Source: Haliotis cracherodii
Lineage: Eukaryota
Direction: 5' to 3'
Length of the DNA stretch: 64,000 bases
Assembly (NCBI RefSeq): GCF_022045235.1
Contig: NW_027266343.1
Coordinates: 51,212,001 to 51,276,000 of the forward strand
The translations under genes and the position numbers were made by a program. Shown piece after piece: positions 1-60,935 of this stretch. The first letter of the stretch is position 1. Each line of letters opens with the position of its first letter. Below the pieces are notes generated by a model. That model saw only the letters and a program-made list of their open reading frames with translations, was not told the origin of the DNA and did no database searches.

Positions 1-340
1 GTCGCCTTTTACGACAAGCTTAGTCGCCTTTTACGGCAAGCATGGGTTGCTGAAGACTTATTCTACCCCGGAATCTTCACGGGAAGTGGCGGGATGGGGT
101 GAGGGAGGGGTGTTTGCTTGCAGTGCTGGGTTTATAGTGCTGTCCGTGAGATACCATGCAACAGTCGGTTTTTTCAGTTTTCCTCGTGGTTGGTGTTGAC
201 AACAAATAGTAATGAAAAGAGATACTGATGACAATAAATATAACACAATGATGACCCTGGTCCGTCCTACAAGTAACGCGTCCCTCATTTATGTTCAGCC
301 ATAGATAGTTTACCAACCTTACCAAAGCTACAATGTTTGG

Positions 341-603
341 TTTGTTTGTTAGTTTGTTTTTTAACGCCGCACTCAGCAATATTCCAACTACATGACGGCG
401 GTCTTTAAATAATCGCGTCTGGACCAGACAATCCAGTGATTGACGCTATATCCACGCTATTTGGATACGATGACATGCATCAACCAAGTCGGCGAGCCTG
501 ACCACCCGATCCCGTTAGTCGCCTCTTACGACAAACATAGTCGCCTTTTTTCGGCAAGCATGTGTTGCTGAAGACCTCTTCTACCCCGGATCCTCACGGG
601 TCC
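341..603 (-). mobile_element. SINE-like family A, full length (another partial copy at 1-82)
   Basis: Reverse complement of GACCCGTGAAGATCCGGGGTAG...GCTGAGTGCGGCGTTAAA(CAAA)n. Confidence 0.85.
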
Positions 604-1962
604 AATGCTTAGTCCTTTGCTTAAGCAAACACCAACAAGTTCTCATTAGCAATTTGCATTTTTATATATTACCTTTGAGGCCTATTTTCTAATTACTTGA
701 GGGATGACAATGCATTTTCCGACAATATTCAACGCCTCACAGCAAGTACCAACCTGGCTTCATATACACTTCCGGACAAAAGAACGTATACACCAAAGTC
801 GATGGTGGCTAAGAATGAAAGGTTAATCCATGGTGATGTATCATTATTGTGTTTTGTAGCCTAGGATGATGTTAATAACGTTTGTAATTTGGGGTCAAAT
901 CCAATTTTCAAGTGTATTCTTTCTTTTGCCCGGTAGTGTATATTCCTTGCGTCATGCAAACGAGGTCTCCTTATACTAGACATTGAATCAAGTAGCGTTC
1001 TTTATGGTTCTTGAAGTGTCTCAGGTAGCTGAAAGTAACAGCTGATTGATTATTAACCAATATCACCCACCAGTTTCTAACGTCAATAATACCAAGATAA
1101 GCTTGATTTATGACGTTCTGAAATCGATTTTCTTCTCTTCCTTTATCCTGAAGTGGCCGTGTTGACGGCAGATTTTCAGCTTCACTAATGTCTAAATATT
1201 CTTTTACAACGTAAAAATAATAACATGGAGATTGCAAAATCAATTGATAGTGTTTGTCACGAATGGGAAAAGAAAAGTTCATGTGTTAGCGCAAACAATG
1301 ACATTTAGGTATTCGTGTTTCCTTCACATAAACATCCCAATCGCTGTGCAGAGTTACGTCCACTAGCAAAGCCAGGATCCGACGAAGTGAAATAGATTCG
1401 CCAGGCCAGTTTTCCCCTGATTATTATCCTTGGTGCGCCATACCCATGCTCGTGGGTTTCACCACATATAGATCTGTGTAAATGAAATAATGTTCAAAGC
1501 GACGTGAAACACAAACCTCTCTACTCTGGGAGAAAGGACGGGTTTCAATGGTTATTGTAACAGTATCGACCTTCGTGTAGATGTCTGAATACTGGTTGTA
1601 TCACATGGTTGTTCTTCAACTGCCATTGCTGCATGGAAATATAGCCATTATAATGTTATAGGGTTCTTAGAGATACCAAAGGCTATTCAAGTACACGTAA
1701 TAAAACATATTGAAATGGGACGATTTGCACTATTGTTAGAATAAACTGAAGCAGGTTTATGGGCAGCATGAATATGCTATGGAAACTCCAATGACGCACA
1801 CTAATGTCCAGGCCCGTGACTCACCGCGACACGTACCTGCAAGCATTGGACACGGCGTGTAAACATACGAATGATTGATAGGCACAAACATATTTCACTC
1901 AATAACATCTGCTGGCACTTTGTGTGACCTGACCTTGTAGATGATTTGTGATGACTGTCTAG

Positions 1963-3380
1963 CATGTCAGTAGCAGTTGGTGATGATGACAACTGTAGAC
2001 ACGTGAGAGTGTTGTCTATTGTCATTTCAGTAGCAGACAGCTGGTGATGATGACAACTGTGGACACGTGAGAGTGTTGTCTATTGTCATTTCAGTAGCAG
2101 ACAGCTGGTGATGATGACAACTGTGGACACTAGAGAGTGTTGTCTATTGCCATGTCAGTAGCTGACAGCTGGTGATGATGACAGCTGTGGACACGTGAGA
2201 GTGTGGTCTATTTCCATGTCAGTAGCAGACAGCTGGTAATGATGACAACTGTGGACACGTGAGAGTGTGGTCTATTGTCATTTCAGTAGCAGACAGCTGG
2301 TAATGATGACAACTGTGGACACTAGAGAGTGTGGCCTATTGCCATGTCAGTAGCAGACAGCTGGTAATGATGACAACTTTGGACACGTGAGAGTGTGGTC
2401 TATTGCCATGTCAGTAGCAGACAGCTGGTAATGATGACAACTGTGGACACGTGAGAGTGTGGTCTATTGCCATGTCAGTAGCAGACAGCTGGTAATGATG
2501 ACAACTTTGGACACGTGAGATTGTGGTCTATTGTCATTTCAGTAGCAGACAGCTGGTAATGATGACAACTGTGGACACGTGAGAGTGTGGTCTATTGCCA
2601 TGTCAGTAGCAGACATCTGGTGATAATGACAACTTTGGACACGTGAGAGTGTGGTCTATTGCCATGTCAGTAGCAGACAGCTGGTGATGATGACAACTGT
2701 GGACTCGTGAGAGTGTGGTCTATTGCCATGTCAGTAGCAGACAGCTGGTGATGATGACAACTGTAGATACGTGAGAGTGTGGTCTACTGCCATGTCAGTA
2801 GCTGACAGCTCGTAATGATGACAACTGTAGACACGTGAGAGTGTGGTCTATTGCCATGTCAGTAGCAGACAGCTGGTAATGATGACAACTGTGGACACGT
2901 GAGAGTGTGGTCTATTGCCATGTCAGTAGCTGACAGCTCGTAATGATGACAACTGTAGACACGTGAGAGTGTGGTTTATTGCCATGTCAGTAGCAGACAG
3001 CTGGTAATGATGACAACTGTGGACACGTGAGAGTGTGGTCTATTGCCATGTCAGTAGCTGACAGCTCGTAATGATGACAACTGTAGACACGTGAGAGTGT
3101 GGTCTATTTCCATGTCAGTAGCTGATAGCTCGTAATGATGACAACTGTAGACACGTGAAAGTGTGGTCTATTGCCATGTCAGTAGCAGACAGCTGGTAAT
3201 GATGACAACTGTAGACACGTGAGAGTGTGGTCTATTGCTATGTCAGTAGCAGACAGCTGATAATGATGACAGTTGTAGACACGTGAGAGTGTGGTCTATT
3301 GCCATGTCAGAAGCAGACAGCTGGTAATGATGACAGCTGTTGACACGTGAGAGTGTTGAATATTGTCATGTCAGTAGCTC
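1963..3380. repeat. 64-bp minisatellite, about 22 copies
   Basis: Unit gccatgtcagtagcagacagctggtaatgatgacaactgtggacacgtgagagtgtggtctatt (starts at 2341 and 2405, for example); no unique spacers. Confidence 0.95.
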
Positions 3381-3922
3381 TCATAAAATCCATACTCACA
3401 CACGTGGCCAATTGTCACCTAATATCAACCTACTCACACACAAACAGGATGCAAGAGTGCCGCAATGCACGAAGATGTTACGCATCACTCCCAGAACCAC
3501 TGGTCGATGCTATATTGGAAAAAGGCGCCCCTGTCAAATGTCAATTGACCAATGCTCGACTTCAACATACACGTGAGAGATGAATCTACACTATTGCCGA
3601 TGAAATGGATTTCCCATAACTAACAACGGCAATGTAATAACGTCTAGATTCACGGATATATTGTCATTGAAATATGAATTGTCACTGCATGAGTTATTCA
3701 CGGAGCATCAGTGACAGCAACAAGTGCATAGACAACACAATACAACATCTCCTTCAGGTTATGTCCCAGTAGGACGCGGATAACGTTTACATCTACTGTC
3801 TCTCAATTGTCTATACATTATGATTGCCTTATAACTGTACCATGGGAAAATACTCTCACACACACAAACATTATTCCTTTTTTCCTCTCTCTCTCCCTCA
3901 CTCTCCCCCCTCTTTCTTTGTC

Positions 3923-4084
3923 NNNNNNNNNNNNNNNNNNNNNNNNNNNNNNNNNNNNNNNNNNNNNNNNNNNNNNNNNNNNNNNNNNNNNNNNNNNNNN
4001 NNNNNNNNNNNNNNNNNNNNNNNNNNNNNNNNNNNNNNNNNNNNNNNNNNNNNNNNNNNNNNNNNNNNNNNNNNNNNNNNNNNN
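3923..4084. other. Assembly gap
   Basis: Run of N. Confidence 1.
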
Positions 4085-5040
4085 ACGTTGTCACGTTGTG
4101 AGCACCCGTCTCTCTGACATCAGCGCTACAAATCTCTTCTCGACACCTTTGTAAGCCCGATTTTGTCTGTCTTCTAATTCTGTCATGGAGGGACAGGCTT
4201 GTTGGACAATAGCTGATGGGTTTAGAAGAGGGGTTTGTGTATATGTGTGAATGTGTTGTGAAGCCACAAGACCGCGCAGCAGTCACGCCTCTGGTGGATG
4301 GAGATTAAATACATGCATATGTATACATCATGTTTAGTTATCCATGTGTTCGCGTCATGAAATAAGATCGCGTGGAATTCTATTTGCTGTGCTTTTTTTG
4401 GAGATATACAATATGTACATATCTTCTGGTAAATATTCCCACGGTAACTCTTTTCAAATACGTTGGAGTGAGTAAGCATCTGGTTGTGACTGTTTTCTGA
4501 TATATTTAGATTGATTCAAGTGATAAAAAAAGAAATATACTTAGCAAACCATGTAATTTATTTCGCATGAAATGTTCTTAACAGTGACCTTAAACACTTC
4601 ATTAAGCACGAAATAGGATGAAATAATCAACACTTGTCCACGGGTCACGCTTCTTCTGTTCGGGTGTAATTATATGGTCAAAATCCTATAAGCTTTCACT
4701 GTAAGGCCGCAGTGGGATAGGTCAAGCGTGGCCAAAACATGGGAAAAGGACAGTGTACATTGTAATATGTTGGTGTATATTAACACCTGCATTGTGTGCA
4801 ACTGACCTCGTTGACCATTGAATCAACAGGGTTAATATACTTACTAGATGTTATGAAGCCACAAGTGGTTGTCGTAAACAATGTCGTAAAGGTGTGCCAC
4901 GTGCAGTTTAATCAGATGTCGTATGGAATGTGTTTGTAGACGACAGATAGTTGTTTATTCAACGTAAACGATATTAACAGATCTTGATGTGTGCGTTGCT
5001 CCACGAGTGCATGAAATATGACAAACAATAAATATATAAA

Positions 5041-5628
5041 GGGAAGAGAATGTATGGATGTCAACTTCTTTATTATGAGGAACACCACGTTTCGGAGTAT
5101 ATGTTTACTCCTTCATCAGGGAAGAGAATTTATGGATGTCAACTTCTTATTTATGAGGAACACAAAGTTTCGGAGTATATACTTATTCCTTCATCAGGGA
5201 AGAGAATTTATGGATGCCAACTTCTTTATTATGAGGAACACCACGTTTCGGAGTATATACTTACTCCTTCACCAGTGAAGAGAATTTATGAATGCCAACT
5301 TCTTTATTATGAGGAACACAACGTTGCGGAGTATAAACTTACTCCTTCATCAGGGAAGAGTATCTATGGATGTCAACTTCTTTATTATGAGGAACACCAC
5401 GTTTCGGAGTATAGACTTACTCCTTCATCTGGGATGAGAATTTATGAATGCCAACTTCTTTATTATGAGGAACACAACGTTGCGGAGTATAAACTTACTC
5501 CTCCATCAGGGAAGAGTATCTATGGATGTCAACTTCTTTATCAGGCCCTGGTGAAGGAGTAAGTGTATACACCAAAACGTTGAGTTCCCTATAATAAAGA
5601 AGATGACACCAATCAATTCTCTTCCTTG
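5041..5628 (-). repeat. 78-bp tandem array (about 6.4 units) plus one inverted unit; Penelope-terminus/hammerhead derived
   Basis: GGGAAGAGAA recurs at 5041, 5119, 5197. The - strand unit contains CTGATGA-A-GGAGTA..TACTCC-GAAA-CGT; inverted copy at 5543-5628. Confidence 0.85.
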
Positions 5629-6416
5629 TGTACATCATATTATGATCAAGATGGCAGTTCAACCGTTCAAACAAGAGTGTTCATTATTCAAAACAGAAGT
5701 TAAACATACAAAGAGTATCAAACTAATTATACTTTTAGGGTGTTTTCATAAAGTCGCCCACGTGTGATATGAATATGCCTGGTGCCTCAGTTCTTTTACA
5801 GTTAAAATACAGCAAGCGATTATATGTATAGATGTTCGGCCATTTACTAGAATTTTCTGATAAACATGACTGATTGCATTGTAATAAAACACATCTGTAG
5901 CAGCGGGTCGGTCACGCGTCTTACATAAACACCGGGATTAGGTATTCATTGCGATCCTCGGGTATGCTATTTTTAAAAAGATGACAAACGAGGGTATGTG
6001 TTAATCGCTGCGACAACGTTTGTTGCGGTCTTTTTAAAAGTCAAAATCACCCGTACCAGAATATGTATATGAGAACATGGTGTGAATAGATCAGCTGTAA
6101 CATGAAGCGGGCGTTTCGAAATGTTTAAATGATGGATGTCAGTGTGTGTCTTTCTTACGATAGCTCACTTCAAATTGATCTACTTTTTATACTTGATATA
6201 GTATCAATGTGATATTAATGTAAATGATGTTTGTTGCACAGTATTTGCCGTGCATATACCATTTCGTTTTGCTATTCTGTACGACCTATTGTTCTATGAC
6301 TTTATATATTATATGATTTTATGTTTAGTGTCTCGTAGGCCATACCTGGTCGGATGTTAGATTTTATTGTTTGTGTACGTGTTTAGTATGAAGTGTATTT
6401 AAAATTTGACATTATA

Positions 6417-6577
6417 NNNNNNNNNNNNNNNNNNNNNNNNNNNNNNNNNNNNNNNNNNNNNNNNNNNNNNNNNNNNNNNNNNNNNNNNNNNNNNNNNNNN
6501 NNNNNNNNNNNNNNNNNNNNNNNNNNNNNNNNNNNNNNNNNNNNNNNNNNNNNNNNNNNNNNNNNNNNNNNNNNNNN
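6417..6577. other. Assembly gap
   Basis: Run of N. Confidence 1.
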
Positions 6578-7507
6578 TTGTTAGTGTGTTCGTTTTAGGG
6601 AGACCGAGTCGGGTGGGGGCAAGTGAGTGAGTGGAGGTGGGGTGGGTGGGGGTGGGGTCGGGGAGGTGAGTGAGAGAGGTGGTGTGGGGGGGATTGTTGA
6701 GTGATTTGGGGAATACTGCATTTAATGAATGTACTTACATGTTTTATAGCTATTCGCGCTGAGAAAAATAGTGACAATGAACTTTGTTAATCTTAATGAT
6801 TAAAAACACGTCATTAAATACTAATCGGGGAAATAGTTTCTATACCTGTGGATTTGTGTACGTAACATATGATCTATCTGTTATAATCATGATCCCTGAC
6901 TCTGCAATTCGACTCAATCCTTATATTAAATTGAGCAGCATAGCCATTGACGTTTCTGTATTATATAGCATGTACAATACCACAGTGGAACGAATTGTCT
7001 TAAACCCCTTCATCGTTGTCAGGGATGAAGGTAAGGGATACGTCATACGAAACACTGATATTGATAAGGCGGCCTGTGAACACTGACCCCGATCGTCAAG
7101 GGTCATGACTGTCAAGTTTTCAATCAGGTGTACATTGCAGTCTATCGGAAAAATCATCACTCGCTTAATTACCTCCCTTGTCAGGCGTTAATCAAACGTG
7201 ATGTCCGCGATGTTTAACGTTAGGATAAGGACAGGGTAAACTGGACGCTCCACTTCGGGGGTCGTTTTATGGGATTACACTGAGGATTAATAGATCATAA
7301 TTATACATGGCTGTCGGAGATGTCACAGGATGTTTTACAATTTATAACCTACGGATGAAGGATAAACAAGTAACGCCACTGTGTTGTATTGAATACTCGT
7401 AGCATCACCATGTGACTGGATGAAGTCTCTATTTCAAAATTAAGATAATCTGTGGTAAATTTTATCTCTAGTCACCGATGCCTTCTGAACCAACTCACAA
7501 GTGGTGA

Positions 7508-7755
7508 GACCCGTAAAGATCCGGGTTAGAATAGACCTTCAGCAACCCATGCTTGCCGTAAAAGGCGACTAAAGGGATCGGGTGGTCAGGCTCGCTGACT
7601 TGGTTGATGCATGTCATCGTATTCCAATTGCGTGTATCGATGCTCATGATGTCAATCACTGGATTGTCTGGTCCAGACTCGAATAGTTACAGGCCGCCGT
7701 CATATAGCTGGAATACGGGTGATTGCGGCGTTGAACAAGAAACAAACAAACAAAA
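7508..7755 (+). mobile_element. SINE-like family A with 10-bp TSD
   Basis: cacaagtggt at 7496-7505 and 7756-7765. Confidence 0.9.
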
Positions 7756-8514
7756 CACAAGTGGTAAACGTCCAAGACTCGAAACGCTTTAGCGCTCACA
7801 AACTATACCGACACGCCGTGAAATAGCTGAACCAATAGCGGCGTTAAACCCAACTTATTCACTCACCCAATGTCGTTTAATAACTACAAGAGGTCCATAC
7901 AAAATTGTTCACTGTCGCTATATATTATATCAGATTTTCAAAACGACCAACTCAGCCCCATGGTACATTTCATTCACTGAGAACTAGTATACAACTTTGC
8001 CGTGCCCTAAGTGATAGTTGATTTGTTTGTAGAGCGCCTACACAGCTTCACGCCTAGGCCCCACGCCCTCGTACGAACCACGCCCGAACACCAAACAGAA
8101 TATGTTTAAGTAGGGTTATGATATTACCCTCGCTGTCCATTTCGATGTCAATAAACGGGTGGTACGATCTAAGAGTTCAATTGCTCATAAAATATTGTCA
8201 AGTGGCACGCCAATGTCTGTGTCGTGATTTATCACCATAATGAGGGGGTACACGTGTTGCGTCATCAATGTTTGAATACCCGATTGATCTGGGAAATATT
8301 TGTATGCCGTCTTTGTGTTCTAACTGAATACGGCTAAGGTCACGAAAGTCGGTTGAGATCGATTCTCATGACATTTATAACATGGGAGACGCAATCCCGA
8401 CCGCGCCTTCGTGATGCAGCGAATTTGACGGGGGAGGGGGGATAGACTTCATGTCGAATCGGTGAGTGAGTTGGGTTTTACAACGCGTAGAACTGTATGT
8501 TTGTCAGAGGTGAG

Positions 8515-8824
8515 ATGAGGTGAAATGGGGTTTAACGTCGCGTCAAAGATTATTGCACATATACAGCGACGTGCAAGCATGTGTGGCTGCTTGTACCAGT
8601 CCGGACTGATGTCAATTGATAGTGCTAGCCTACTGAGATACCATGCCGCAGTTTAACATAAAAATCCCACTCAGACACAGTATACTGACTCCGAGCCAAC
8701 CAGGTCTTGTTTAAGCCCCCTAATGTACCATGTAACAACAAGTACCATCTTTTAACGTGGTGGTGAAATGGGGTTTAACGTCGTGTTCAAGATCATTGGA
8801 CTTACATAGCGGCGTGCATGCAAG

Positions 8825-8901
<77 letters not shown>

Positions 8902-9148
8902 CAGTCAAGTGTGGGTTTTATAGTACCAACGTACTGAGGCACCAAGCCTTGAATTAACATGAATACCCAACACAGACACAGCAAACTAACCCTTAACAGT
9001 CCTCGTCAGTTTATCCCCTTAATGACAAGGGTAACAAGACAGGGTAACAACAAGTACCACGTCTTATGTTTTGTCATGACACTCCAGGAGATCGAACCAC
9101 TCCGCTCTCGGGGTAGACAGTCTATCCACTAGGCCACGGAGGCGGTCT
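8515..9148 (-). mobile_element. tRNA-derived SINE family D (Meta-domain-like), two tandem copies
   Basis: Reverse complement of GACCGCCTCCGTGGCCTAGTGG...GGTTCGATCTCC...GGTACTTGTTGTTACCCTG; related copies at 23095-23330 (-) and 25326-25452 (+). Confidence 0.75.
8828..8900. repeat. (GT)n microsatellite inside a SINE
   Basis: About 36 GT units. Confidence 0.97.
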
Positions 9149-10569
9149 CTTATTTCACGGTGTGTTTGCTAAACGTGGAAGGAAAACCGGAAGTGAGATG
9201 CAGGTTGCAGACATTTTCCACTTTGGTGAAAGCAAAGAGCGGTGTGGTGAAACTTGTATTCGAGCACACGCATTGAAGTGAATGCTAACAATGACGTCTC
9301 AGAAGATTAAAACATATTGGAGAAGGGTAAACCTTTCGTTTTCAAAGGATTTGATTTACATTGTTACATCGTAAATGATGCGTTTCGTAGAATTTTGTTC
9401 ATATTGATGGACGCTAAACGCTGCGGTGTAAGACGTCTTGACAAGAATTGTAGGACAGTTAATGAAGCGGTTATTGAGACTTAATGCATTGAAACGACAC
9501 GTATGAGATATACTGCCTCCCACCAGAGTGATGTACGGTTACCATGGCGGATGTCGGACAGATACCAGATAGTATATAATAATGTTATCGGCAGTATGTC
9601 ATCTTGGCTATCACGTATAGCTTCAGTGGCTGCATTTAAAGTGACCAGAGCGGAAAGATCTGCCATAGACTTGCTCAGGCAGACGGTACCTGATATATGT
9701 ACGGATATTGTAAACATACAAGCTATGTATTCAATATTAACAAGTGTTACAGCTTTATGAAGGTTGTATGGTATCATTTTGTATCTGAAGACATCTGAGA
9801 TTATTTTTATTAAATGAAGTTCCACAGGAGAAAAAGACCCATGTAGTCAACGTATACATTTTATGGCTTTTTTATTCAAAACTATCAGATTTCAGATGTC
9901 AAACGGGTTCTATACTACATTTTATTCAGATGGAGGACCGTGTCACACGGGCTTTTTAAGAAAGTATCTGCATATGATATTGAGAGTATTAAAATATGTG
10001 TGACAACTGCTATACCATTAGGAAGCATGTATTGAAATTTCAAGCGGTGAGTGGAAAAAGCCCTAAGTGTAAGAGCTCACCCATGATGTTCGATCTATCG
10101 CTTTGATGACGTATACTGTAGCACAGAAGTGGCTTGACTTCACTTCTAAATACTTTACATGAGCAAAACTAATTATAAAACATGATACCTACATGGAATC
10201 GATCTTGGCCAATATAAAGTTTAATAGATCTCGTGCATTCTATGTTGTCAACAAGTAAATATAAGCGACAAAACGCGTATCGTGATAATGAGAAATCTTT
10301 CCTAACAGCAGAGTCCATCGTGCAATTCCGACCATATCATGAAGATGTTATATGAATCACTTTCAAATAGTGATGACACCAGGTGTTCGCGATAAGGTTC
10401 GCCTCCGGCGACGCATGTGAATTGTCTGCATCAAAAATAACACACGGGGAAATATTATTCAAGTCAAAGTAGGATATTGCATCGGACAAGGCTATATAAG
10501 TAACTGCAAGGCTTCCCCGAAATCGAAACGAACAAGGGGCACGGAGTATTGTCCCTTGGTATAGTAAAC

Positions 10570-10805
10570 ACCTGAAGATCGATTTAGAATTGGATTCAGC
10601 AACCCATGCTTGTTGTATGAGGCGACTAACGGGGTCGGTGGTCAGGCTCGCTGACCTGGATGATGCATCTCATCATATCCGAAATGCGTTGATCAATTCT
10701 CATGGTGTCAATCACTAGTTTATCTGGACCAGACTCCATCATTTACAGACCGCAGTCATATGCTGGTATATTGCTGAGTGCGGCGTTGAACAACAAACTA
10801 ACAAA
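10570..10805 (+). mobile_element. SINE-like family A, diverged
   Basis: Similarity to the other copies. Confidence 0.75.
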
Positions 10806-10893
10806 AAAACGACCTATATATAGGTATATGTTTTCACTGTGTGCAGTTCATGGCTGCTACTCTGTGTACTAAATGTCTACTTGTTTGTTTCAG

Positions 10894-10971
10894 AGATGGT
10901 TCCGCCATCGCCTGGCATGCTGGAGACAACAGCAAGGCCTGCCAGCCAATAGCGGCTCAGTAAACGACTGA
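10894..10971 (+). CDS. HOPX: Homeodomain-only protein (HOPX-like), last coding exon: RWFRHRLACWRQQQGLPANSGSVND*
   Basis: Acceptor ttgtttgtttcag at 10881-10893, phase 0. The translation aligns without gaps to the human HOPX C-terminus KWFKQRLAKWRRSEGLPSECRSVTD*, with the same stop position. AATAAA at 11239-11244. Upstream exon not found in the window. Confidence 0.88.
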   Translation, partial: RWFRHRLACWRQQQGLPANSGSVND

Positions 10972-11238
10972 CGTCATACATGGATCCCGAACGAGGCTAC
11001 GAAAGCTGAACGAGTTATCGACCTTGCACATCGACTGTGTGTACACGCTTGAAGACTTGTGTTGTGTATTCAACGCTTAATTGTTATTGTTATGTATTTG
11101 TTCCAGGTATTTACGGTTCCTTTTGGAAATTCAGGGAAATTTATTGAGGGCTCTTTTGTGTATGTCTACTGTAAAATATATTCAGCTAATTTATTGACGG
11201 ATTGTGCAGTAGGGGTGAAGTTACAGAGGATAAATGTA

Positions 11239-11244
11239 AATAAA
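11239..11244 (+). terminator. Probable polyadenylation signal of HOPX
   Basis: AATAAA about 270 nt after the stop, followed by a T-rich tract (11267-11295). Confidence 0.5.
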
Positions 11245-12007
11245 AAGCAATTTCAAAGCAATGCGTGATTTATCTTTTTCTTCACATTGCCCTTTTCAAA
11301 GATCACACTGGTGTGATATCTTCTTCATATCACGGCTTTCATTAGTGAACCCGACGAACACGGGTATGGTGCTGACAAACCTAGAAGCATAATCAGGGGA
11401 ATCTGAGATTCGAACCCACGATCATACTTTTTGTTCCTGGCACACACAAGGGACGAAACTCTGTACAGAGAATTGCTATGCCATACACAACTGGGCCATA
11501 CGTGCACCCTTGTGAGAAAAGTAATATGTCAGACATAGCAATTCAATATGTCAGAACAGTTTTGGATCAAATAAATCTACCGCCAGTGTGACAAGATCAT
11601 AGTCGTGGCTGTACAGAGTTGTGCCCCTTAGCTACTAGGATCCGCTAATGTGGGTTTGAATCCTAAGATGCATCTATGATGTTTGTGTTTTCAGCATCAG
11701 GCACGTGCTCGTGGGTGTTACATACAGGTGTGTAAAATGTTGGCCTTATTCTCAAATGATATCAAGCTGACTGACGTCATATTACTGAAATACCGGCAAC
11801 AAGAAGTATCGGTGGTTTGTTTAGTCCTGGGGTTGTGTGTCATCGTGCCCCGTTGACCGTTACTCATGTTTTCAATCACTGGTTTGCGTGGCCTAGACTC
11901 GATTATTTACAGGTCGCCTTGACACAGCTGGGATAAATACTGACTGCAGCTTTAAACGCTAGGTTAATTCTCCTTCTGTCACATTTATGTCTATGCAATA
12001 ATATTCG

Positions 12008-12255: not shown

Positions 12256-12754
12256 CCTGATGTACTGACATGAATCTGTTGCTTGCCGCATGTGGCCTAC
12301 ATTTATTCAGACATGAAACCTTTCTTTTGCTGGCTTCATTATGCATAACAGACACATGAAAACTTTTCCATTATTTAAAACTGAGTTGTTGATGAAACTA
12401 GATATATGTGCAAATACAAGGGTGACTATGAAACAATCAAAACGTGTTTCTCGTGCGCCCGACATGCGTGATGCGTGAGTATTTTGTGGAATGGAAACTT
12501 GTTGGAAGCAGCTGCCAAGACAAACATGAACAAAGTATTATTGCTGGCCACACATTGGCTAATATACCTGAGAAAACGGCGCTGGTTGTACTTGTTGGTA
12601 ACGAGCCGTACTGTACAGAGCCAATTTGACTTAGTGTTGTTTTGTCATCAGCATCAACAACAGATGGTAGTGACTAAACCAGTGCATACACACTCGCACC
12701 CTCAGTGCCAAGTCCAGTCTCGCACAACGTTAGGCTTTGATCAGGGCCGCTTCT

Positions 12755-13226
12755 GCTACCTTCGACCGCCGCTGCTACTACTACGACCGCTGCCGCTTCT
12801 GCTACTACGACCGCCGCTGCTAATACTACGACCACCGCTGCTGCTACTACTACGACCACCGCTGCTGCTACTACTACCACCACCGCTGCTGCTACTACTA
12901 CTACTACGACCGCCGCAGCTGCTACTACAACGACCGCTGCTGCTACTACTACGACCGCCGCTGCTGCTACTACTACTACGACCGCCGCAGCTGCTACTAC
13001 TACGACCACCGCTGCTGCTACTACTACGATCACCGCTGCTGCTGGTACTACTACGACCGCCGCTTCTGCTACTACTACCACGACCACCGCTGCTGCTACT
13101 ACTATGACCGCCACCGCTGCTACTACTACTTGTCCTACTATACTACTACTGCTACTACTACTACTAAAACAACTACTACTACTTCCACTTCTACTACGTC
13201 TACTACGTCTACTACACCTACTACGT

Positions 13227-13257
<31 letters not shown>
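12755..13257. repeat. Compound trinucleotide repeat (ACT/ACG/ACC/GCC/GCT)n
   Basis: Directly visible; accounts for the low-complexity ORFs at 12475, 12674 and 13104. Confidence 0.9.
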
Positions 13258-14504
13258 GTAAGAGGGTGGTCAGGCTCGATGCTTGGTGCATGTTATTGCA
13301 TTCCAGCTGCGTGGATCGATGCGCATGGTGTCACTCACCGGATTGTCTGGTCCACATGGGTACACATTGTAACCACGTGGTGTGTGTGTTATCATACGGT
13401 GTGGGTTGTTGTCCATGTTATAAACCAGTGGTTTCAATTAACCATACTCGACTATTTACAGATCATGGTGCTCAAGCTGTAATGTTGATGAGTGTGGTTA
13501 AAGACATCTTTTTAAATAATCAACTAGTTACAAAGGGCACGAATGCCTACACGTCTAACCTCAGTTGGCTGTGCAGAGGTATATTCTTTAGGCTTGCCAG
13601 AAAGCTATGACCGTGGGTTCGAATCCCAGTTCACTCTGATTACGTTTCTTGGTTTGCCAGCACAGTATTCTTGATCGTGGGTTTCGCCAATGTGGTCAAC
13701 ATATAAGTTCTACATTAATTCGGGTTTTCCTCCCACATCAAGCTGACACGCTGCGATATTACTGAAATACTGTTCAAAGCGGCGTTAAAACAATCTCCCT
13801 CATTCACAAACGTGATGTTCTGAAGAGTATTTGAGACGGTAGTATGTTGTTGTTGTTGTTTGTTGTCTAAGGCCGCACTCCAGCAATATTCCAACTATAT
13901 GACGGCGGTCTGTAATTAATAGAGCCTGGGCCAGACAATCCAGTGATTAGGATACGATGCTATGTATAAATCAAGTCAGCGAGCCTGACCACCCGATCCC
14001 GTTAGTCGCCTCTTACGAACATGACAACGTTACAGTAACACTGTCAGATGTCCCCCGCCGTGTTGTTGCTGGAATATTGCTAAAAGTGGTGTAAAATCAA
14101 ACTCACTCACTCACTGTTTTAATAAAGCACAGTTCACGATATATGTTGGAACCAACAGACATAAAACATCATCCTATCGTAAAACTGTCGGCGATATACA
14201 TCGCCGGTGTCTCAGAGTGCATATTTCAATATCAATCATATACATATCGTCAACGGCTGTCATTTCAAACTACCGTTATGTACCCTTCTGTGCCAGCACT
14301 TCGTGTATGTAGCACTGTCAAGGTTGATGATAACATCTAATAGAGACGGCCAAGGTCACGCCCGGAGAGCACTGCCAGATGGCACAGATACAGAATGACT
14401 TCAGACGCGTGGTGATGTGCTACACTGCGCTATGCTGTAGGCTGTTGGTGTCATTCTTCCTGTCCAACACCTCGATAGGGGATATTTCCGCTGTTTGCTG
14501 TTTG

Positions 14505-20749: not shown

Positions 20750-22740
20750 TACTGAATTCTCTATTGATAACAGGAGCAGATTTGAGTCTTTAATGCACTT
20801 GTATTCGGGCAAATAAGTTTTGACAAAAATCCTGGTCTCTTAAACGAGCCAAGGATCTGAATGTGAATATTGATTATGTTGATGATTGTGAAATGCTTAA
20901 CGGTACAAAAATGAGTGTCAACCAAGCAAAGTGCCCTTTTAAATTGGCCCAGACTCAGCTTTTCAAGTAGAGGCCATCTGAACGACCACTGCTTCGAGTC
21001 TATGTGCAGTGTGTTGAGAAGAAAAGCCCTTACTTCCTTCTGAACAGTGAAACAGAAGGCTTTCAGTTTGCTGCTCAGGACCAGTCACTTCCAACTCGAA
21101 ACCGTCAATGTGGGATTTTGCATCAAAATGTAAATATGAAATGTAGATTATGTATACTAGAATTTAATGAGACTGTAAAATACATTGTCAGTGGATGCCA
21201 AGTTTTGGCACAAACACAGTATCTTAAGGAACATGATGGAGTGGCTCGATCCTTTTATTACAGTCTTCGACATGCTGGTGGATTTGACACAGAGGTCCAT
21301 CCATGGTACGACCCAGAATGTGTAAAAATGGAAAATGATAAATACAAACGTCTTTGGAATAGGCTCGTATACAGCCTCAGACCTATCCAACAAACCTGAT
21401 CTTGTCCTTTTTCATAACTCCAATGAAGTTATTTATAGCCAAGAATTTTCTGTCCCTTTTGACACAAATGTGACTGACAAGATTCAGGAAAAACATGGCA
21501 AATATGCGGACGTCGCTTTCAAAATGTCACTCTTGCACCCAAAGTAACAAGTTGTTCGGCTCCTCACTGTTCTCGGTGCCTTAGGTTTGGTACCACGAGT
21601 AAAAGGCAAATTATTGAAACAGCAGTGGGACAAAGCCATGCCAATGTATGCATACCTGAGTGAACAAAACACCCTGGACCAGCTCCGGCAACTAAAATTA
21701 TATATGCGCCGTTAACCTGGTGAGCTAACTGCCAACGCTCGTCAGGCGTCTTTGCATGAACCCCCAGTTCCAACTGCAGCAGATCTGAAATTGCAAACGT
21801 TCGCATTATTCTCCCTAAATTACCTCAAGCAATTGTCAATGATGACCTACACATGGGCTCACAAAATGAAATTCTGATGGTGGCCTCGAAGATGTTGAGT
21901 TTTCTTCCGATTCCGACCTCTCCTCTGTCAATGAACTTTCTTATGATCCGTTGTAAATTTTGTTAATGTCATTCTATAATCAGATCTCTGATTTACCGAT
22001 TTAGAGACGGAGGCCAATAAAAACAATTTGACCAATCATTTCCACAGAATCAATTTAATAAATAAGAAGACATTATGTCAGTCACTCTTAATGCCGGCTG
22101 TTCTTTGCGTGACATTTACTGTTGCGTGTATGCTGCTGCTGGAACACAGAAGGAACTCAATACAGTTTCCAAAGACAATGAACTACAAAAGGGTAATAAA
22201 CAAAATCATCAAAAGAAAAAATGGTTCCAAAACAAAATAAATGAAACATGCAATGCTATATCCCGGATCGACAATCAATGTCCAAAACACCAAAAATCAA
22301 TTTGGAATAAAATAAAAAATACAAGACAACAAAAGAGAAAATTCTAAATCAAGTTCTTGATTCTCTGATGGCAAAGTTTAAGTTTTAGAAAGAAAAGAAA
22401 GTGGGACAAGAAAAAAAGTTCATTAAACAAAATAAACTGTTCAAATCTTATGATAAACACTTTAACAGGCAATTAAATGCAACCAATGGCAGTGATAAGG
22501 AAAGGCCTGCCATGGACTGATGAAAGGTTTTGGAAACAGCTGTGGTCTATACCCGGCAACTGCAACCTCGAGCAACCTTAGTAGAGGCTTACAATAATAA
22601 TGTACATGACAAAATAAAGTCGCCATTGTGTTTCATTACAACCGGTTGCCTGAAAAGGGTAATTAAAAAGTCCAAATCTAACACAGCGCCAGACCCTGAT
22701 GGCATTCATAAATGTCCAAACGCCATTACTTCACTGTTTA
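20750..22740 (+). mobile_element. Decayed non-LTR retrotransposon with restriction-like endonuclease (R4/Dong-like)
   Basis: ETEGF.FAAQDQSL.TRN, CRLC....ETV..IVSGC..LA...Y...HD.VA (degenerate CCHC), KPDLVL, E.SVPFD.N...K..KY; further downstream an N-terminal region ending in APDPDGIH. Confidence 0.8.
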
Positions 22741-24257
22741 AATTATCTTGTGGATACAGGGGATGTTCCGTCTTCGTTGTCTGATCGAGACTTGAGTATT
22801 TCCAGGCCTCCGTAATACAGCTAGAATTCCATGAGTGGCGCTCAACAACCAACAAACAAACTGTACTCAAGGACAATAACTCGTGTCTGGATACAGGAGG
22901 TTACCGTATAGACGTGTCATGTCACGTTCGTTATGCTGAGTCCCAGATGAGTCTCACTGATCCCGTTATGTCCAAGTTATGTACGTAGCAGCCCAACCCT
23001 TAGTATGACTGACCCTGTGGTGAGGGGAAAAGGGATTCGTGTTCAAGGTTATTGCACTTACATACCGCCCTGCCTTTGTGATTCAGCCAAAGTGATTGAT
23101 TGATGTATTGGTTTTTGTCCATGTACTAGTCTGGATTAATGCCGGTTTTGTCGTGCTAGACCGTGCCGCAGTTTAACATGAATACCAACTCAGTGTACCG
23201 ACACCGAACCGACCAATCTTTTTCTTCCCCTAATGTCGAGCACCACGCAGGGTAACAAGTGCCGTCTTTTAACGTCTTATGGTATCCCGCGAATCGAACC
23301 ACCGACTCCACTACACCAACGAGGTGGTTCTGACCCTGTGGGGATTCCGATGTTTACTAATGGTTTTCGGGCTGTATGTAATACGCAATGACGTCAGAGC
23401 AGTAATGGCGTCACATTTTATCATCGACGTACTGTTAACATCTCAAAGACTTTTGAATTGGGTATTTTGCAGTAATATGGTTGGAATATTGCTACCAGCG
23501 ACAACAGCACCGTACGTCATCATTCACTAACGTTATGATTCAACTGTGAAGGCTATCTATGTTCTCATTTAAACGTTGCAGGCCCCAACTATGTTTCAAA
23601 GTGTGTCGGCACCATACTCGTACTCGTGGGTTTCACCAAAATGATAAACGTCTTAGACCTGCATCACTTCGGACTTCCAAACTGACTCGCCGTGATATTA
23701 CTGGAATTCTGGTCAAAGCGGCGTTAAACCCAACTTAATCACTCACTCACGCTTTATAATGCAGCCGTGGACGCTGTCATTGTTCTGATTAAACTGTGGT
23801 AGGTCGTGGCTATTGGCTGTGTCTCAAGGAATTTGTATTATGAAATAAACTTTGATTTCAAACGTATTCAATGCAGTACAACGTCCAGTTAATTGTTCTG
23901 TTGGAGTTGGCAAAATAAGGTTTCACCTGGAACAAATTACAGCAAAATGTATTTCACCATAATGTATTTCTACAAGGTTCCAAGAACAACATACTAAAAG
24001 TCCGAAGCAATCACAGTTTGGGATATATATCTGATGTGCAATATCCAATATGGCCAATAGTTATCAATATATCTTCCATATTTCAAATGAGGTTCAATCT
24101 ATTATTGAACAAAGCATATATCTTTTTGCAAAAAGGTCATACTAGGTTTCTTAAAAAGTTATTCACGAGGTCTACAGAAGGCTTTGACTATTGACAAATC
24201 TACAAAAATTCAACATGGCCGTCAATTTCAAGATGGGCGGCAAGTTTCCTAAATCCC

Positions 24258-24655
24258 TGGTTCAGGGAAATTTGACAGCAAATCGCAATATAAATCAAAT
24301 TCTTCAACCTCGCCTTCTTCCAGTCGCTGACCGCCAGAGAGAGCTGTTTCAACAGCACAACGCTCTACCGCACACAGCTCGTTTCACGGTAGACTACCTT
24401 CATAATGCCAACATCAACGCTTTGCCCTGGCCGTCGAGATCTCCAGGTCTCAACCCAATCGAACACCTCTGGGATGAACGCGATCGACGTGTACGTCAAC
24501 GTCAGAACACGCCGCAGACACTCCCACAACTGGCCAACGCTTTACAAGCAGAATGGCGCAGAATTCCGCAGGACAGAATTCGTACACTTTTCCAGTCAAT
24601 GCCGAGGAGATTCAGAGCCGTGATTGTTGCCCGGGGCGGTCACACGAGATACTGA
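24258..24655 (+). mobile_element. Tc1-family transposase C-terminal fragment (pseudogene)
   Basis: GNLT, FQQHNA.PHTAR, LPWPSRSPGLNPIEHLWD, SMPRR..AVI.ARGGHTRY; second catalytic D appears mutated to H. Confidence 0.9.
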
Positions 24656-40184: not shown

Positions 40185-43100
40185 CTATGGTTTTCTTTTA
40201 CCATTTTGCAGATTTAAGCATTCTGATTAGACTATAAAGTTGTTTATTATAATCGGTAATGTTATCTGGAATCGTTTTGTAAACTGCTTTCTGTTTCTTC
40301 ATAAAAATGTTCATCCACAAGTATGAGCTTTGCCTCATACGTCTTTCGCATCCTCCACAAGGATTCCTTGTGCTGTCACCTAGGGTCATTTCTAAGTTCC
40401 GGAACATTACAGGAACAGATGATATGAAAAATATAAATTGTCAATGCAAGAGAATAACCAACCTTGATTTTTTGCCGAAAATGAATCCACTTGGCGGTAA
40501 GGGCAAATAGTTGTGTAAATAATATGAATGAACGAGTGAAAATCAGTGATGACGCCAGGTTTTTGCGAAAAGGGGAGTGTGAGTATAGGAACAATAAGAT
40601 AGAACTTGTGGTGTGACATTGTGTGTATTGGTCCTGCTGACATCTGCGTTGAATTCCACAACCAATCAGATTATGATCTTGTAGCGTGCTTGTTGTCCTG
40701 TAAGCCACATTCAGATATTGATCCAGATACCAGTCGTTCTTACTCACGGACTGGAATTCGAGGTTTTTAATAGATGGGCGGAATTTAAAAATGAACATAT
40801 GTTACCACAATGGGCTACGGTTGTATTCTCTGACAATGTTATTATTATCATGTAATTATTCGTAATGCTATACCTTGTAACGCCTACGGAGGAATAAAAT
40901 TATATATATAGGATAAGCAAATTGGTTCATCCAGATCTGCCCTTATCCAATTAGGTGAGGGATATAACATACAGCAGTGAAATTAGGTGTATTTAAAGAT
41001 GGGGCGGTGGGGTAGCCTAGAGGATCAAGCGTTCGCTCGTCACTCCGGAGATCCGGGTTCGATTCTGGTGTCAATAATCACTCACTTATTTATTTAGAGA
41101 TGAAATGGGACATTATGATGTTTTCATTTTCTTTCAGGTCAGTTTGGAATGCCAGGTTTTAGCGTGGCTGTGTTTATCGGGTTTAGCGCAGCTTTCTTTT
41201 CATCGTTGGTGGAGTCTGTGGGTGACTATTTTGCTGGATCAAAAGCTTGTGAAGTCGACACTCCGCCAGATCACGCGGTGAACAGAGGAATTTTCATGGA
41301 GGGGCTAGGTGGCCTACTTTCTGGTTCAATAGGTGTAGGGCATGCTACGACGTCCTACAGTGGCAACATTGCAACCATATCTGTGTCGAAGGTAATGTTT
41401 GATAGCTAATAATTAAATTTAATTTATTACGCCTTGTTGCTTGAAAGTATAAAAAATTCAAATGTTCCAAGAATACTTCAAGTTGGCTACTTCCTTTACA
41501 GAATATAATTGTGTGTTTTAAAGCAATGTCCGATAAATCCTGTGTTTGACAGACATTCAGGTTAGGTTAGAAGCAATTCCATACATATTCCCTGAACAGA
41601 CAAGACACTAGATTTACGAATTCAAATATTTTACAATGTTCTTTCATGATTGGAATAGACGACGATACAGCCAGTACTCGAAACGCCTTGCTACGTGTCA
41701 TCTCAAATACAGTTGGAAACGTCTTGTAGGATAAGGACATCCCAATCTCTGTCTTATACTCAAGAAAGTATCTATTCCAGCTAAATGTAAAATCATAACC
41801 GTTTTCTGATTCGATCAAATGGCGAGAGCTCGGTCGTACAAGGTGGCATCTTTGAATGTGGATCTATAATAATATGTGTACGAATGTTGCGCTAGACTCC
41901 ATACACAAGGGTGATGTACATGTGCGTTTGGTTCAGGGGATTAAATCCTCCCTATCTGCCACCACGGAGAGGCGTACGTCATCATCATTATAATTACCAA
42001 CGAGTTTGAATTAGTTTCTGCATACAACGCAAAAAGCCTGGGCACCTGGGCATTTTGAAATAAGCTTCTGATGTGAAATAATGACCTACCGTTTTCCCGA
42101 GTTGATGAAATTCGAATATTTTTTATATGTTCTTGTTGCAGACCGGGAGCAGATCCGTGATGGTCTGTGCTGGAATCATGCTGATTATCTTTGCCATTCT
42201 GGGGAAGTTTGGTGCTGGATTGGCGTCCATCCCCAATCCTGCTTTAGGGGGTGTCCTCATCCCCACGTTAGGGATGCTGGTCTCACTCGGGCTGTCCACT
42301 CTTCGTTACATCAACTTGACCTCGACGAGAAACCTAACAATATTGGGGACGTCAATGTTTGTTGGTATGTTTGTGCCGGAATGGATTAATCTGCATCCCG
42401 ACTTCATCAACACAGGTAAAGTGCTTCACACATATAATTGACACTTCTCATACACGTTACAGAAGTAACTGATTGTTTTGTTATTGAGGGCCCTGCCATG
42501 TGATATTCGGGAGGGATGGGAAGGGGCTGGATTTGTTTGATAAGAATAATCTTTTCCTGAAAATCCTTGAACATTTTTTTCCTTAATGTTTACCCCAAAC
42601 AGAAATATATCGTCGACTGGACTTGCTACACTTTCAGCGAATCCATAACGTTTAGTGTCTTGAAAAGCTGACAGAAAAGATTTTGTGTCAAACAAAACTC
42701 TGATCCCCAAAACATGACAATCTTATGATATAGGTCACTGTGATCTACTTTCAATGAGAAGCACATGCTTGTCGTTACGTTGAATTCCACCTGGGGCCAT
42801 CATATTTGGTTTATATGCTGGATTTGGAATGTTCTTGAAATCTTGGTCATTGGCTTTGATGGCCAAATGCACCCTCAATAATATTATATTCCAAAAGCAT
42901 CAGCAGTTTTCACGATGTATGTATCAATTGATTTGAATTGGTAAGGTTTTGAACGACCTTCATTGAAGGCCAAGGCCACGGGAATGGTCATTCAAAAGAT
43001 GGTTCTGCTTCTTGGCTGACTGAACTGAGTTTGTAAGAGGATGTACTCATGTTTTCAACTAAACATAAACAGGTAGGTAATTGTCAGAAACAGAGGAACA

Positions 43101-44151
43101 GGGTTATTAATTAACCGGGAGTATATGAAAGTTGTTCGGCTCCTTTTCAAAGAAAAATGTGCGTTCCAGGTACATCTTGTATGTGGTTGCAGTAGGCATC
43201 ACGATGTATTTTACCAACGTAATGGTATAAACAATCTTAAAATGCATACTTGTATGGAATTGTTTCTGGCGAATTCTTTAAATGCGAGAAGGGGGAGGGG
43301 CTTCTGTTTTTGCAAGTCCTGCAAACACATCTCTAGTTATATTTTATATTTTACAGGAAACCCCGAAGGGAATGCCATTTTGAAAGTAATCTGTGGTACA
43401 CCGATGTTCCTAGGCGGTATGATTGCTATGATCCTTGATAATACTGTGAAAGGTAAGCACGATTGTGACATGAACAGAAGACTATGGTATTTGTTACAGA
43501 CATTTTATTCAAAGTAAATACCGTCTGGACTTGCTGACTGTAGGTCATAGAACGTCATCGGGGCCAATCGTTGCTCTATCAATTCGATTCTCGACAGGCC
43601 TCTGTCGTACAGCGAGTCTATGTCGGCGGGGTATTGATAATAATCACTCACTCTCTTCAGAGGACGTAAAATTGTTTGGATCAGATCTTCATTTCGTTGT
43701 TAACCATCCTATTGTGTCTGTATTGAGTAAATGTAGATTTACGGCAGGGTCAACAGTAAGACAGGTGTGTAAAGGCGACCTGTAAATAATAAAGTCCAGG
43801 CAAGGCAATTCGGTGATCTGCCCGGTCTGAACCAAATTTCCCGTGATTGTTTCCACGATGTGATTTTGTCTTATACATCTCTGTAATTCAAAGGATACAA
43901 ATATGTTTGTTTCAGGCTCGATTGAGGACAGGGGAATTGCAAAATGGCGGGAGCGTCATGGTGCAGATTCCAGCACTCAAGAAGGAGGTGCTATCTCTTA
44001 CATGCTTCCTTCGTCGGTTGCCTATGGTTGGACTTGTATACCAAGTCTCTACAAGAGGTTAAATATCCTGTCATACCTGCCGTTTATGCCACCGAACAGT
44101 GAAACACATAACTTGAAATACACGCTCGACAAAGATCATGTCATCATCTAG
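30943..44151 (+). CDS. SLC23A: Solute carrier family 23 (nucleobase-ascorbate transporter, NAT/NCS2) gene, 11 coding exons, 623 aa
   Basis: Exons 30943-31131, 32983-33140, 35742-35839, 36287-36387, 37319-37500, 38704-38830, 39459-39615, 41138-41391, 42142-42415, 43357-43452 and 43916-44151 join in frame (1872 nt) with matching phases. Family motifs: LQ|H, RLPIFQGPS, IGPVTVAPTISLIGL, ARTD, PYPGQFG, ESVGDY, HAVNRGIFMEG, STRNL, LDNT. Confidence 0.93.
31200..31468 (-). mobile_element. SINE-like family A, head-to-head with a family C copy (31472-31740)
   Basis: Similarity to the other copies. Confidence 0.85.
32983..33140 (+). CDS. SLC23A: SLC23 exon 2 (HVLLSLSSC...LQTLVGIR)
   Basis: ttttccccag acceptor, AG|gtaaga donor; completes the QH motif. 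Confidence 0.92.
33230..34930 (-). mobile_element. Decayed large DNA-transposon ORF, probably Academ (AcademX)-type, in SLC23 intron 2
   Basis: Frameshifted - strand peptides: DVYPVRT..C....DDWG, EFTQDVHVVEAIYHQYC, AGHNLY, HPEVY..F, TDLVIEKVLM, QRAKWLLSRPAC, GEQH, NPF..D.NLRNIATGV. Superfamily assignment is from recalled motifs, not a search. Confidence 0.65.
33541..33968. repeat. 71-bp minisatellite, about 6 copies, amplified from transposase-coding sequence
   Basis: gatatcctcc recurs at 33611 and 33682; the - strand unit reads TDLVIEKVLM..TTGELTGG. Confidence 0.9.
35742..35839 (+). CDS. SLC23A: SLC23 exon 3 (RLPIFQGPSSSFLPALLAIQNNAEWSCDHVSNG)
   Basis: Not in the ORF track. ttttcggacag acceptor, G|gtttgt donor; conserved LPIxQG and WxC. 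Confidence 0.9.
36287..36387 (+). CDS. SLC23A: SLC23 exon 4 (DTNTYDENNSTISPLNMTETSSLLGLTETEKLQK), N-glycosylated loop
   Basis: ttgcattacag acceptor, AAG|gtagta donor; phases fit exons 3 and 5; N-x-S/T sequons as expected in the SVCT extracellular loop. Confidence 0.8.
37319..37500 (+). CDS. SLC23A: SLC23 exon 5 (LSGSLMAAS...SWEISIA)
   Basis: tgttgcag acceptor, gtaagt donor; YIGPVTVAPTISLIGL. Confidence 0.92.
38300..38520 (-). mobile_element. Decayed Penelope-like RT C-terminal fragment
   Basis: GVFNIHLLRYNRSCS.FQD.......RKLLDQGY resembles the GVYxSQLIRYARACS...KLLxQGY thumb region. Confidence 0.55.
38704..38830 (+). CDS. SLC23A: SLC23 exon 6 (AAVLVLVFTLFLDNVRLPLP...RLFGLLP)
   Basis: catatgccag acceptor, CCG|gtatgc donor; the VxLPLP...LFxLLP pattern of the family. 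Confidence 0.88.
38965..39227 (-). mobile_element. SINE-like family A (further copies at 27710-27885, 37640-37847, 39800-39965, 44195-44380)
   Basis: Similarity to the other copies. Confidence 0.85.
39459..39615 (+). CDS. SLC23A: SLC23 exon 7 (ILLSIVLMW...ARTD...PWFIFPYP)
   Basis: tgtttcag acceptor, G|gtatgc donor. Confidence 0.92.
40117..40181. repeat. (TA)n microsatellite
   Basis: About 32 TA units. Confidence 0.97.
41138..41391 (+). CDS. SLC23A: SLC23 exon 8 (GQFGMPG...ESVGDY...TTSYSGNIATISVSK)
   Basis: ttctttcag acceptor, AAG|gtaatg donor; contains the NAT signature region. Confidence 0.93.
42142..42415 (+). CDS. SLC23A: SLC23 exon 9 (TGSRSVMV...DFINT)
   Basis: cttgttgcag acceptor, G|gtaaag donor; GKFGA, STRNL. 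Confidence 0.93.
43357..43452 (+). CDS. SLC23A: SLC23 exon 10 (GNPEGNAILKVICGTPMFLGGMIAMILDNTVK)
   Basis: ttttacag acceptor, G|gtaagc donor; MFxGG...LDNT. Confidence 0.92.
43916..44151 (+). CDS. SLC23A: SLC23 exon 11 (GSIEDRGIAKW...YLPFMP...HVII*)
   Basis: gtttgtttcag acceptor; GxxEERG..W and YLPFxP tail motifs; TAG stop. Confidence 0.9.
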
Positions 44152-48810: not shown

Positions 48811-49432
48811 ATTTGCTGAAATTTCACTTCGACTCTGACTTTACAGGTGGTGATTTTATTCTTTTGGAAGCCTTCTGTGAACCATCAGACACAAAGCTTT
48901 GACTTTTGCAGACGATTTGCTGAAATTTGACTTCGACTCTGACTTTACAGGTGGTGACTTGATTCTTTTTGAAGCCTTATGTGAACCATCAGACTCATAG
49001 CTTTGACTTCTGCAGACGATTTGCTGAAATTTGACTTCAACTCTGACTTTACAGGTGGTGACTTTATTCTTTTGAAAGCCTTCTGTGAACCATCAGACAC
49101 AAAGCTTTGACTTTTGCAGACGATTTGCTAAAAATTGACTTCGACTCTGACTTTACAGGTGGTGACTTTATTCTTTTGAAAGCCTTATGTGAACAATCAG
49201 ACACAAAGCTTTGACTTTTGCAGACGATTTGCTAAAATTTGACTTCGACTCTGACTTTACAGGTGGTGACTTTATTCTTTTTTAAGCCTTATAAGAACCA
49301 TCAGACACAAAGCTTTGACTTTTGCAGACGATTTGTTGAAAATTGACTTCGAATCTGACTTTACAGGTGGTGACTTTATTCTTTTGAAAGCTTTCTGTGA
49401 ACCATCAGACACAAGGTTTTGACTTTTGCAGA
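48811..49432. repeat. 104-bp tandem repeat, about 6 copies
   Basis: gactttacag recurs at 48837, 48941, 49045. Confidence 0.93.
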
Positions 49433-49919: not shown

Positions 49920-50570
49920 CAACCACTGCAATATGTAATCAGAACTAGAGCTTCCTGTGGCTAATACCACTGCTACCTGTAATCATTATCATTGCTACCT
50001 GTAATTAATACCACTGCATTCTGTAAAGAGGACTAGAGCTACGTGCAATTAATACCACTGCTACCTGTAGTTGTTATCATTGCTACCTGCAATTACTAAC
50101 ACTGCTACCTGTAATTATTATCATTGCTAACTGCAATTACTACCACCACTATATGTAATTTTTATCATTGCTTCCTGCAATTAATACCACCACTACCTGT
50201 AACTATTATCATTGCTACCTGCAGTCAATACCACTGCAGTATGTAAAGAGGACTAGAAACACCTGCAATTACTACCACTGCTACCTGTAATTATAATCAT
50301 TGCTTCCTGCAATTAATACCACCACTATCTGTAATTATTATCATTGGATCCTGCAATTAATACCACCACTACCTGTAATTATTATCATTGCTTCCTGCAA
50401 TTAATACTACCACTACCTGTAATTATAAACATTGCTACCTGCAATTACAACCTCTGCTACCTGTAACTATTATCATTGCTACCTGCAACTAATACCACTG
50501 CACTCCGTAAAGAGGACAAGTGCTACCTGCGATTAATACCACTGATACCTGTAGTTATTATCATTGCTAA
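49920..50570. repeat. Higher-order minisatellite of about 21-22-bp subunits
   Basis: Alternating ctacctgtaattattatcattg and ctacctgcaattaataccactg subunits, periodically interrupted by gtaaagaggactagag. Confidence 0.85.
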
Positions 50571-60644: not shown

Positions 60645-60935
60645 GTAAGTACTATTTTAAGGTTTGCTTGTGATATATATGTATACTTTTAATGTTTGAT
60701 TCATCTGCTGCGCATCTGGCTGTTTTCAATCTTTATGTTGAGCTAATTCATAAAAGTACAAATATGTAACATAAAACGTTCTTGTAAATTGGGAAATATA
60801 TGAATGCAGGTGAAAGTAAAACTGATAACATAATTCACAATGAGTGGTGTGAACTGAATTTACCAGATGAGTAACGATAACATGCTATTTCCCTTTCTTG
60901 ACAACGATTTTCACGTTGCTCAATAGATACTCAAA

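Follow-up and report, generated by a model that had tools for sequence, protein, structure and literature searches.

One of the closest described relatives of the locus analysed here is vertebrate HOPX, or HOP, a member of the Hopx family among PRD-class homeodomain proteins, for which solved structures are available (PDB 1uhs, 2hi3). Vertebrate HOPX acts via partner proteins, among them SRF, GATA factors, and HDACs, according to passages of three papers (PMC9179269, PMC12608687, PMC6997107), and does not bind DNA, as stated in the part of the work of Holland et al. consulted here, which also gives an intron at homeodomain position 46/47 as a criterion for HOPX (PMC2211742). The family is still called vertebrate-specific in a passage of one review (PMC6997107). 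However, a section of Paps et al. 2015 describes Hopx, earlier known only from chordates, in two oysters and a snail, and places its origin at the base of Bilateria (PMC5322547). The idea that invertebrate Hopx is new is therefore not supported, mollusc Hopx having been in print since 2015. The passages seen from Barton-Owen et al. contain a single mention of Hopx, next to Lopx (PMC6118893).

The window is a stretch of 64,000 nucleotides from the abalone Haliotis cracherodii (G000:C80:51212001-51276000 of the 1.18-Gb genome). The preferred reading, to which a probability of about 0.85 is assigned, is that the window contains the terminal exon of a Hopx gene that has two coding exons and is transcribed and spliced, and that the product of 80-89 residues is likely a non-DNA-binding co-regulator of transcription factors. 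The parts of the gene are listed below; positions are those of the window, except for the first exon, which is positioned on the same contig.

G000:C80:51192980-51193171 (L003:980-1171), + strand: Hopx helix 1-2 coding exon, ending at the donor AAG/GTAAGC
1..10893, + strand: 3' part of the 29,722-bp Hopx intron, which begins outside the window
10872..10893, + strand: AG acceptor with its polypyrimidine tract, in phase 0 at homeodomain position 46/47, seen in the sequence and at the junction in contig X1
10894..10971, + strand: coding part of the last exon, with the remainder of helix 3 (positions 47-60), the Hopx C-terminal tail, and the TGA stop
10972..11261, + strand: 3' UTR, with RNA coverage ending at about 11261
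11239..11244, + strand: poly(A) signal AATAAA, some 17 nt upstream of where the RNA contigs end

Positions 10894-10971 of the forward strand translate as RWFRHRLACWRQQQGLPANSGSVND, followed by TGA (25 residues and a stop). The acceptor is pyrimidine-rich and ends with TTTCAG at 10893, and RNA coverage starts at 10892, in agreement with the 25-codon terminal exon behind a strong acceptor that was initially described. Since an in-frame stop is positioned 8 codons upstream of 10894, the last exon is not a free-standing ORF. When the 25 residues alone are compared to the PDB (177,635 sequences), two solved HOP chains come first, with E values of 3.2e-4 and 3.3e-4, and the sole other match has an E value of 0.27. 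Pfam assigns 0 families to the 25-residue exon alone. Primate HOPX (P0132), which matches the human helix-3 residues quoted in the initial annotation, reaches 36.2 bits on the last exon in a tblastn search of the window together with 200 kb upstream of it (264 kb), as compared to 24.3 bits or less in 30 of 30 shuffled-DNA controls. Approximately 92 letters that are absent from the assembly occur at 11157-11159 in the 3' UTR, both in contigs of runs X1 and X3 and in a small number of raw X21 and X22 reads. The difference has a 3-base overlap and would be either a deletion in a haplotype or a slip in the assembly.

The partner exon is absent from the 10.9 kb that precede the last exon in the window, as the initial annotation had also found, and is located 18.8-19.0 kb before window base 1. 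Phase-0 GT donors with at least 40 open codons before them were scored against the helix 1-2 positions of homeodomains. Among 1,122 phase-0 donors in 210.9 kb, the exon ending at C80:51193171 has the top score of 19, versus 13 for the runner-up. By itself this exon reaches 30.8 bits with PF00046 and so passes the cut-off; engrailed matched the exon-1 piece about as well as HOP did. The intervening intron of 29,722 bp is of the GT-AG type, in phase 0, and separates Lys46 from Arg47, which corresponds to homeodomain position 46/47. The upstream tblastn search that had been proposed as a check gives matches of hemichordate and locust Hopx proteins to both exons, with E values of 7e-5 or better. 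Caecilian HOPX has 35 matches in the whole genome, among which the two Hopx exons singly rank only 7th and 19th, though no other match equals their identities (58% and 41%), and their summed score of 45.5 bits comes first, versus 28.9 bits. No second Hopx-like exon pair is present among the 35 matches, which suggests that the abalone genome carries one copy of Hopx. Tandem arrays and simple repeats are found at 1963-3379, 5040-5541, 12700-13300, 33542-33969, 48810-49432, 49962-50568, and 58171-58678, the first three of which are positioned inside or just after the Hopx gene.

The two exons are joined in RNA data. The stretch is contained in 20 listed runs from 9 studies, none of which is recorded as RNA; a further four runs of raw RNA were included on the basis of their species label. 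Four runs were aligned to each exon, 5 different runs overall. The X1 contig (1,082 nt, depth 106.1), the RNA status of which is a guess of the tool, corresponds in its positions 326-597 to L003:900-1171 and in its positions 596-861 to window 10892-11157, both with 0 differences. The two letters shared by these segments are an AG that is present on both sides, and therefore the exon join is exact. The RNA junction at 10894 named earlier as a check is thus present, with the helix 1-2 exon continuing directly into the last exon. The base-exact position is based on the contig of this one run, and contigs of X3 and X5 stop at the same exon edges. Raw RNA-seq reads of X21 and X22 cover the last exon from 10892 to about 11261 at a depth of roughly 40-75, and no reads from these runs are present at 10817-10878, in the two bins just before it. 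The first exon is covered by about 30-65 reads of X21 and X22 up to L003:1171, and by 0 beyond L003:1179. Short, SINE-like, high-copy repeats on both sides of the last exon (10600-10816 and 11344-11436) draw thousands of reads, and the pile-ups at these positions come from the repeats. The Hopx gene is real, spliced, and transcribed.

Three in-frame ATG codons would give products of 89, 84, or 80 residues; the first of them closely follows an in-frame stop, which falls within the stretch covered by RNA. Translation likely starts at the third ATG, whose context is the best of the three and which agrees with where five other gastropod proteins of 80 aa begin. The spliced frame corresponds to protein P0001 plus the stop and is identical in 89 of 89 residues to RefSeq XP_071090530.1, the model of which starts at the first ATG. 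The RefSeq protein is named 'homeodomain-only protein-like [Haliotis cracherodii]' and its cluster also holds proteins of H. rubra and H. asinina. Public annotation therefore already includes the gene, contrary to what was first supposed. The large protein search was run with the 55-aa upstream exon as the query, the 32-aa exon being too short, and P0001 was found at 100% identity. A genome-wide PF00046 search does not include the Hopx locus among the 150 scored of 354 candidates, which indicates how it can escape homeodomain surveys. In the complete protein (80-89 aa), PF00046 matches residues 28-76 at 43.7 bits, leaving little beyond one homeodomain.

Residues at positions 5, 51, and 53 of the homeodomain contact DNA, with Arg53 making a backbone contact. 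In abalone Hopx, Arg5 is replaced by Leu, Asn51 by His, and Arg53 by Leu. Because the three residues are missing, abalone Hopx is likely a non-DNA-binding co-regulator. The P0001 search yielded 27 proteins (27 candidates), in which the named ones belong to gastropods, bivalves, and an octopus. Among the 26 close homologues (22 named molluscs and four unnamed proteins), Leu53, the GL tail, and the N-terminal motif I-x-A-x-L-x-P...LP, which occupies the place of the basic arm, are conserved in 26/26, and His51 in 25/26. Three read-through fragments of exon 1 (P0002, P0026, and P0027) were excluded from the residue tallies. The loss of Asn51, to which the initial annotation gave weight, does occur in the abalone protein, but it is not the best mark of the family: Asn51 is kept in 5 of 23 named Hopx proteins and Arg53 in none of the 23, making the loss of Arg53 the better one.

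It is improbable, although it is the strongest of the alternatives, that the gene is a true Hopx orthologue in which His51 confers an altered DNA specificity, and that in molluscs its product functions as an ordinary transcription factor. In favour of this reading, the near-complete conservation of His51 in the close homologues indicates that the residue is under selection, and five of the 23 named Hopx proteins keep Asn51. In contrast, Arg53 is replaced in 23/23 named Hopx proteins and Arg5 in 22/23 (by own anchoring), and vertebrate HOPX with the same residue pattern is described as not binding DNA (PMC2211742, in part). Asn51 is retained in one limpet Hopx, and some Arg residues persist in helix 3, so that weak DNA binding might still occur.

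As a non-DNA-binding co-regulator, abalone Hopx would, by analogy to its vertebrate counterpart, enter the nucleus, dock on SRF, GATA, or similar DNA-bound factors, and recruit HDAC-type co-repressors. The conserved end of helix 3, the GLP tail, and the invertebrate N-terminal motif may provide the protein-binding surfaces. The abalone genome contains a MADS gene whose first half reads like that of SRF. Another MADS exon, MEF2-like, is present in two nearly equal copies (G000:C1:86375482 and G000:C53:96595), perhaps an unmerged haplotig.

The assignment to the Hopx family, as proposed in the initial annotation, is upheld by the splice evidence, the position of the intron, sequence and fold matches to the PDB, and phylogenetic trees. 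The full P0001 sequence matches the HOP structures 1uhs and 2hi3 with an E value of 5e-13, and the next single homeodomain has 1e-5. The alignments with both structures run to their last residues, including the C-terminal GLP...SV.D tail, and bear out the initial claim that the loss of Asn51, the W..RLA.WR...GLP tail, and the stop position are shared with HOPX. The abalone protein is predicted to take the three-helix homeodomain fold, with helices at residues 28-40, 46-56, and 60-78 in a model with a mean pLDDT of 71. A Foldseek search with the model places the HOP structures 2hi3 and 1uhs first (E values of 3e-4 and 4e-4), with a modest lead over other homeodomains at 3e-3.

In the first tree, 23 named Hopx proteins, including those of the abalone and three vertebrates, are separated from 20 abalone homeodomains by a branch with support of 98/97. 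After the best homeodomains of 25 of 67 long proteins were added, the Hopx branch has support of 99/98 against 45 outgroups. The homeodomain phylogeny thus groups abalone Hopx with vertebrate HOPX, as had been anticipated; both trees were calculated from the homeodomain only, with the tail excluded, in 60 columns, and their bootstraps are unsettled. Within the outgroups, 14 of the 20 rows from the abalone genome lack helix 3, and named Lopx or Zhx rows are absent. These properties of the trees lend some weight to the idea that the gene comes from a different divergent homeobox family, such as Lopx or Zhx, and is grouped with HOPX by long-branch attraction, as do published indications that HOPX is unstable in trees (PMC2211742, in part) and that it is positioned near Lopx in one tree (PMC6118893, in part). 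However, the Hopx group persisted after the addition of the 25 divergent homeodomains, the protein has homeodomain-only size, and the tail following helix 3 and the stop position, which did not contribute to the trees, independently match vertebrate HOPX. Membership in a different family is therefore very unlikely. A chance match or a dead remnant, as might be suspected from an exon of only 25 codons that is flanked by repeats and has no Pfam match alone, is refuted by the splicing and expression of the exon and by an intact 89-codon frame with 60-99% identity across molluscs.

The rest of the window contains several other features. Exons of an SLC23-like (xanthine/uracil/ascorbate permease) gene are positioned at 41119-44148 (+), with open frames from about 39370; two pieces match Pfam PF00860 with E values of 8e-18 and 1e-19. 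An open frame at 60902-61370 (+) has a signal-peptide-like start and GGLYGG repeats and resembles a glycine-rich shell or structural protein, with no match in Pfam. It is flanked on either side by the copies of a local duplication of approximately 96% identity (59055-60034 and 62686-64000). A transposon remnant at 24188-24652 (+) includes a DDE_3 piece of the Tc1/mariner type (Pfam E value of 2.5e-6), and fragments at 55946-56758 and 20971-21396 look retroelement-like by eye and have no Pfam matches.

A search against representative proteins gave 313 matches at E values of 0.001 or lower. Among the 150 listed, 20 were looked up for names, and the named Hopx holders are a barnacle, a tick, two mites, a sea spider, a locust, a psyllid, a tardigrade, an annelid, a hemichordate, a crinoid, and a coral, together with three vertebrates; the remaining five entries have no taxon. 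Most of the named proteins bear the automatic name homeodomain-only protein, and the tick protein has been given the name of other PRD genes. The 12 non-mollusc invertebrate proteins all group with HOPX in both trees; the coral protein is on a long branch and its placement is therefore less sure. Judging from these database sequences, Hopx is present in arthropods, a tardigrade, an annelid, and ambulacrarians, and probably in corals. The tick proteins P0041 and P0178 carry the RefSeq names Rax2-like, Vsx2-like, or Pitx1-like; P0041 has the Hopx tail and groups with Hopx, and hence the RefSeq tick names look wrong. By eye, the N-terminal motif is present in 10 of the 12 non-mollusc invertebrates, the exceptions being the psyllid and the coral. 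It is absent from the three named vertebrates, and the pattern matched one of 20 amniote-type proteins.

The chances are about even that Hopx is an ancient family, which may predate bilaterians, rather than a chordate-plus-mollusc gene with many losses. Its present holders would then be insects, crustaceans, chelicerates, tardigrades, annelids, and ambulacrarians, and probably corals as well, and the invertebrate [A/P]-x-L-x-P...LP motif, which replaces the DNA-binding arm, would serve for the docking of partners and have been lost by vertebrates. Among the open papers searched, none, judged by title or opening of the abstract, deals with arthropod Hopx, and none was found on a wider range of Hopx or on the N-terminal motif; curated databases may already list the genes. 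By itself the locus has little weight, its gene being annotated already and Hopx having been reported in molluscs. If a proper survey traced the family back to the bilaterian ancestor or earlier and established an invertebrate-only motif, the ancestral role of HOPX, a co-regulator in stem cells and heart, could be tested in animals such as oysters, locusts, or corals.

Abalone Hopx shares with vertebrate HOPX the homeodomain-only size, the predicted fold, the intron at position 46/47, the loss of Arg5, Asn51, and Arg53, the W..RLA.WR...GLP tail, and the position of the stop. The two differ at position 51, which is His in the abalone and Gln in vertebrates, and in the N-terminal I-x-A-x-L-x-P...LP motif, which is conserved in abalone Hopx but lacking in vertebrate HOPX. 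Human HOPX is described as having one extra residue inserted between its first two helices; this insertion is absent from the abalone protein and also from caecilian HOPX. Only two of the 23 named Hopx proteins have it, and it therefore marks some vertebrates and not the family. In the passages and the supplementary file 2 matches of Paps et al. (PMC5322547), chordates and molluscs are the sole named holders of Hopx, and abalone is absent. The mollusc proteins described there, from the oyster (CGI_10009529), a pearl oyster, and a snail, belong to the same family and phylum as abalone Hopx; an oyster protein from the P0001 search is 62% identical to it.
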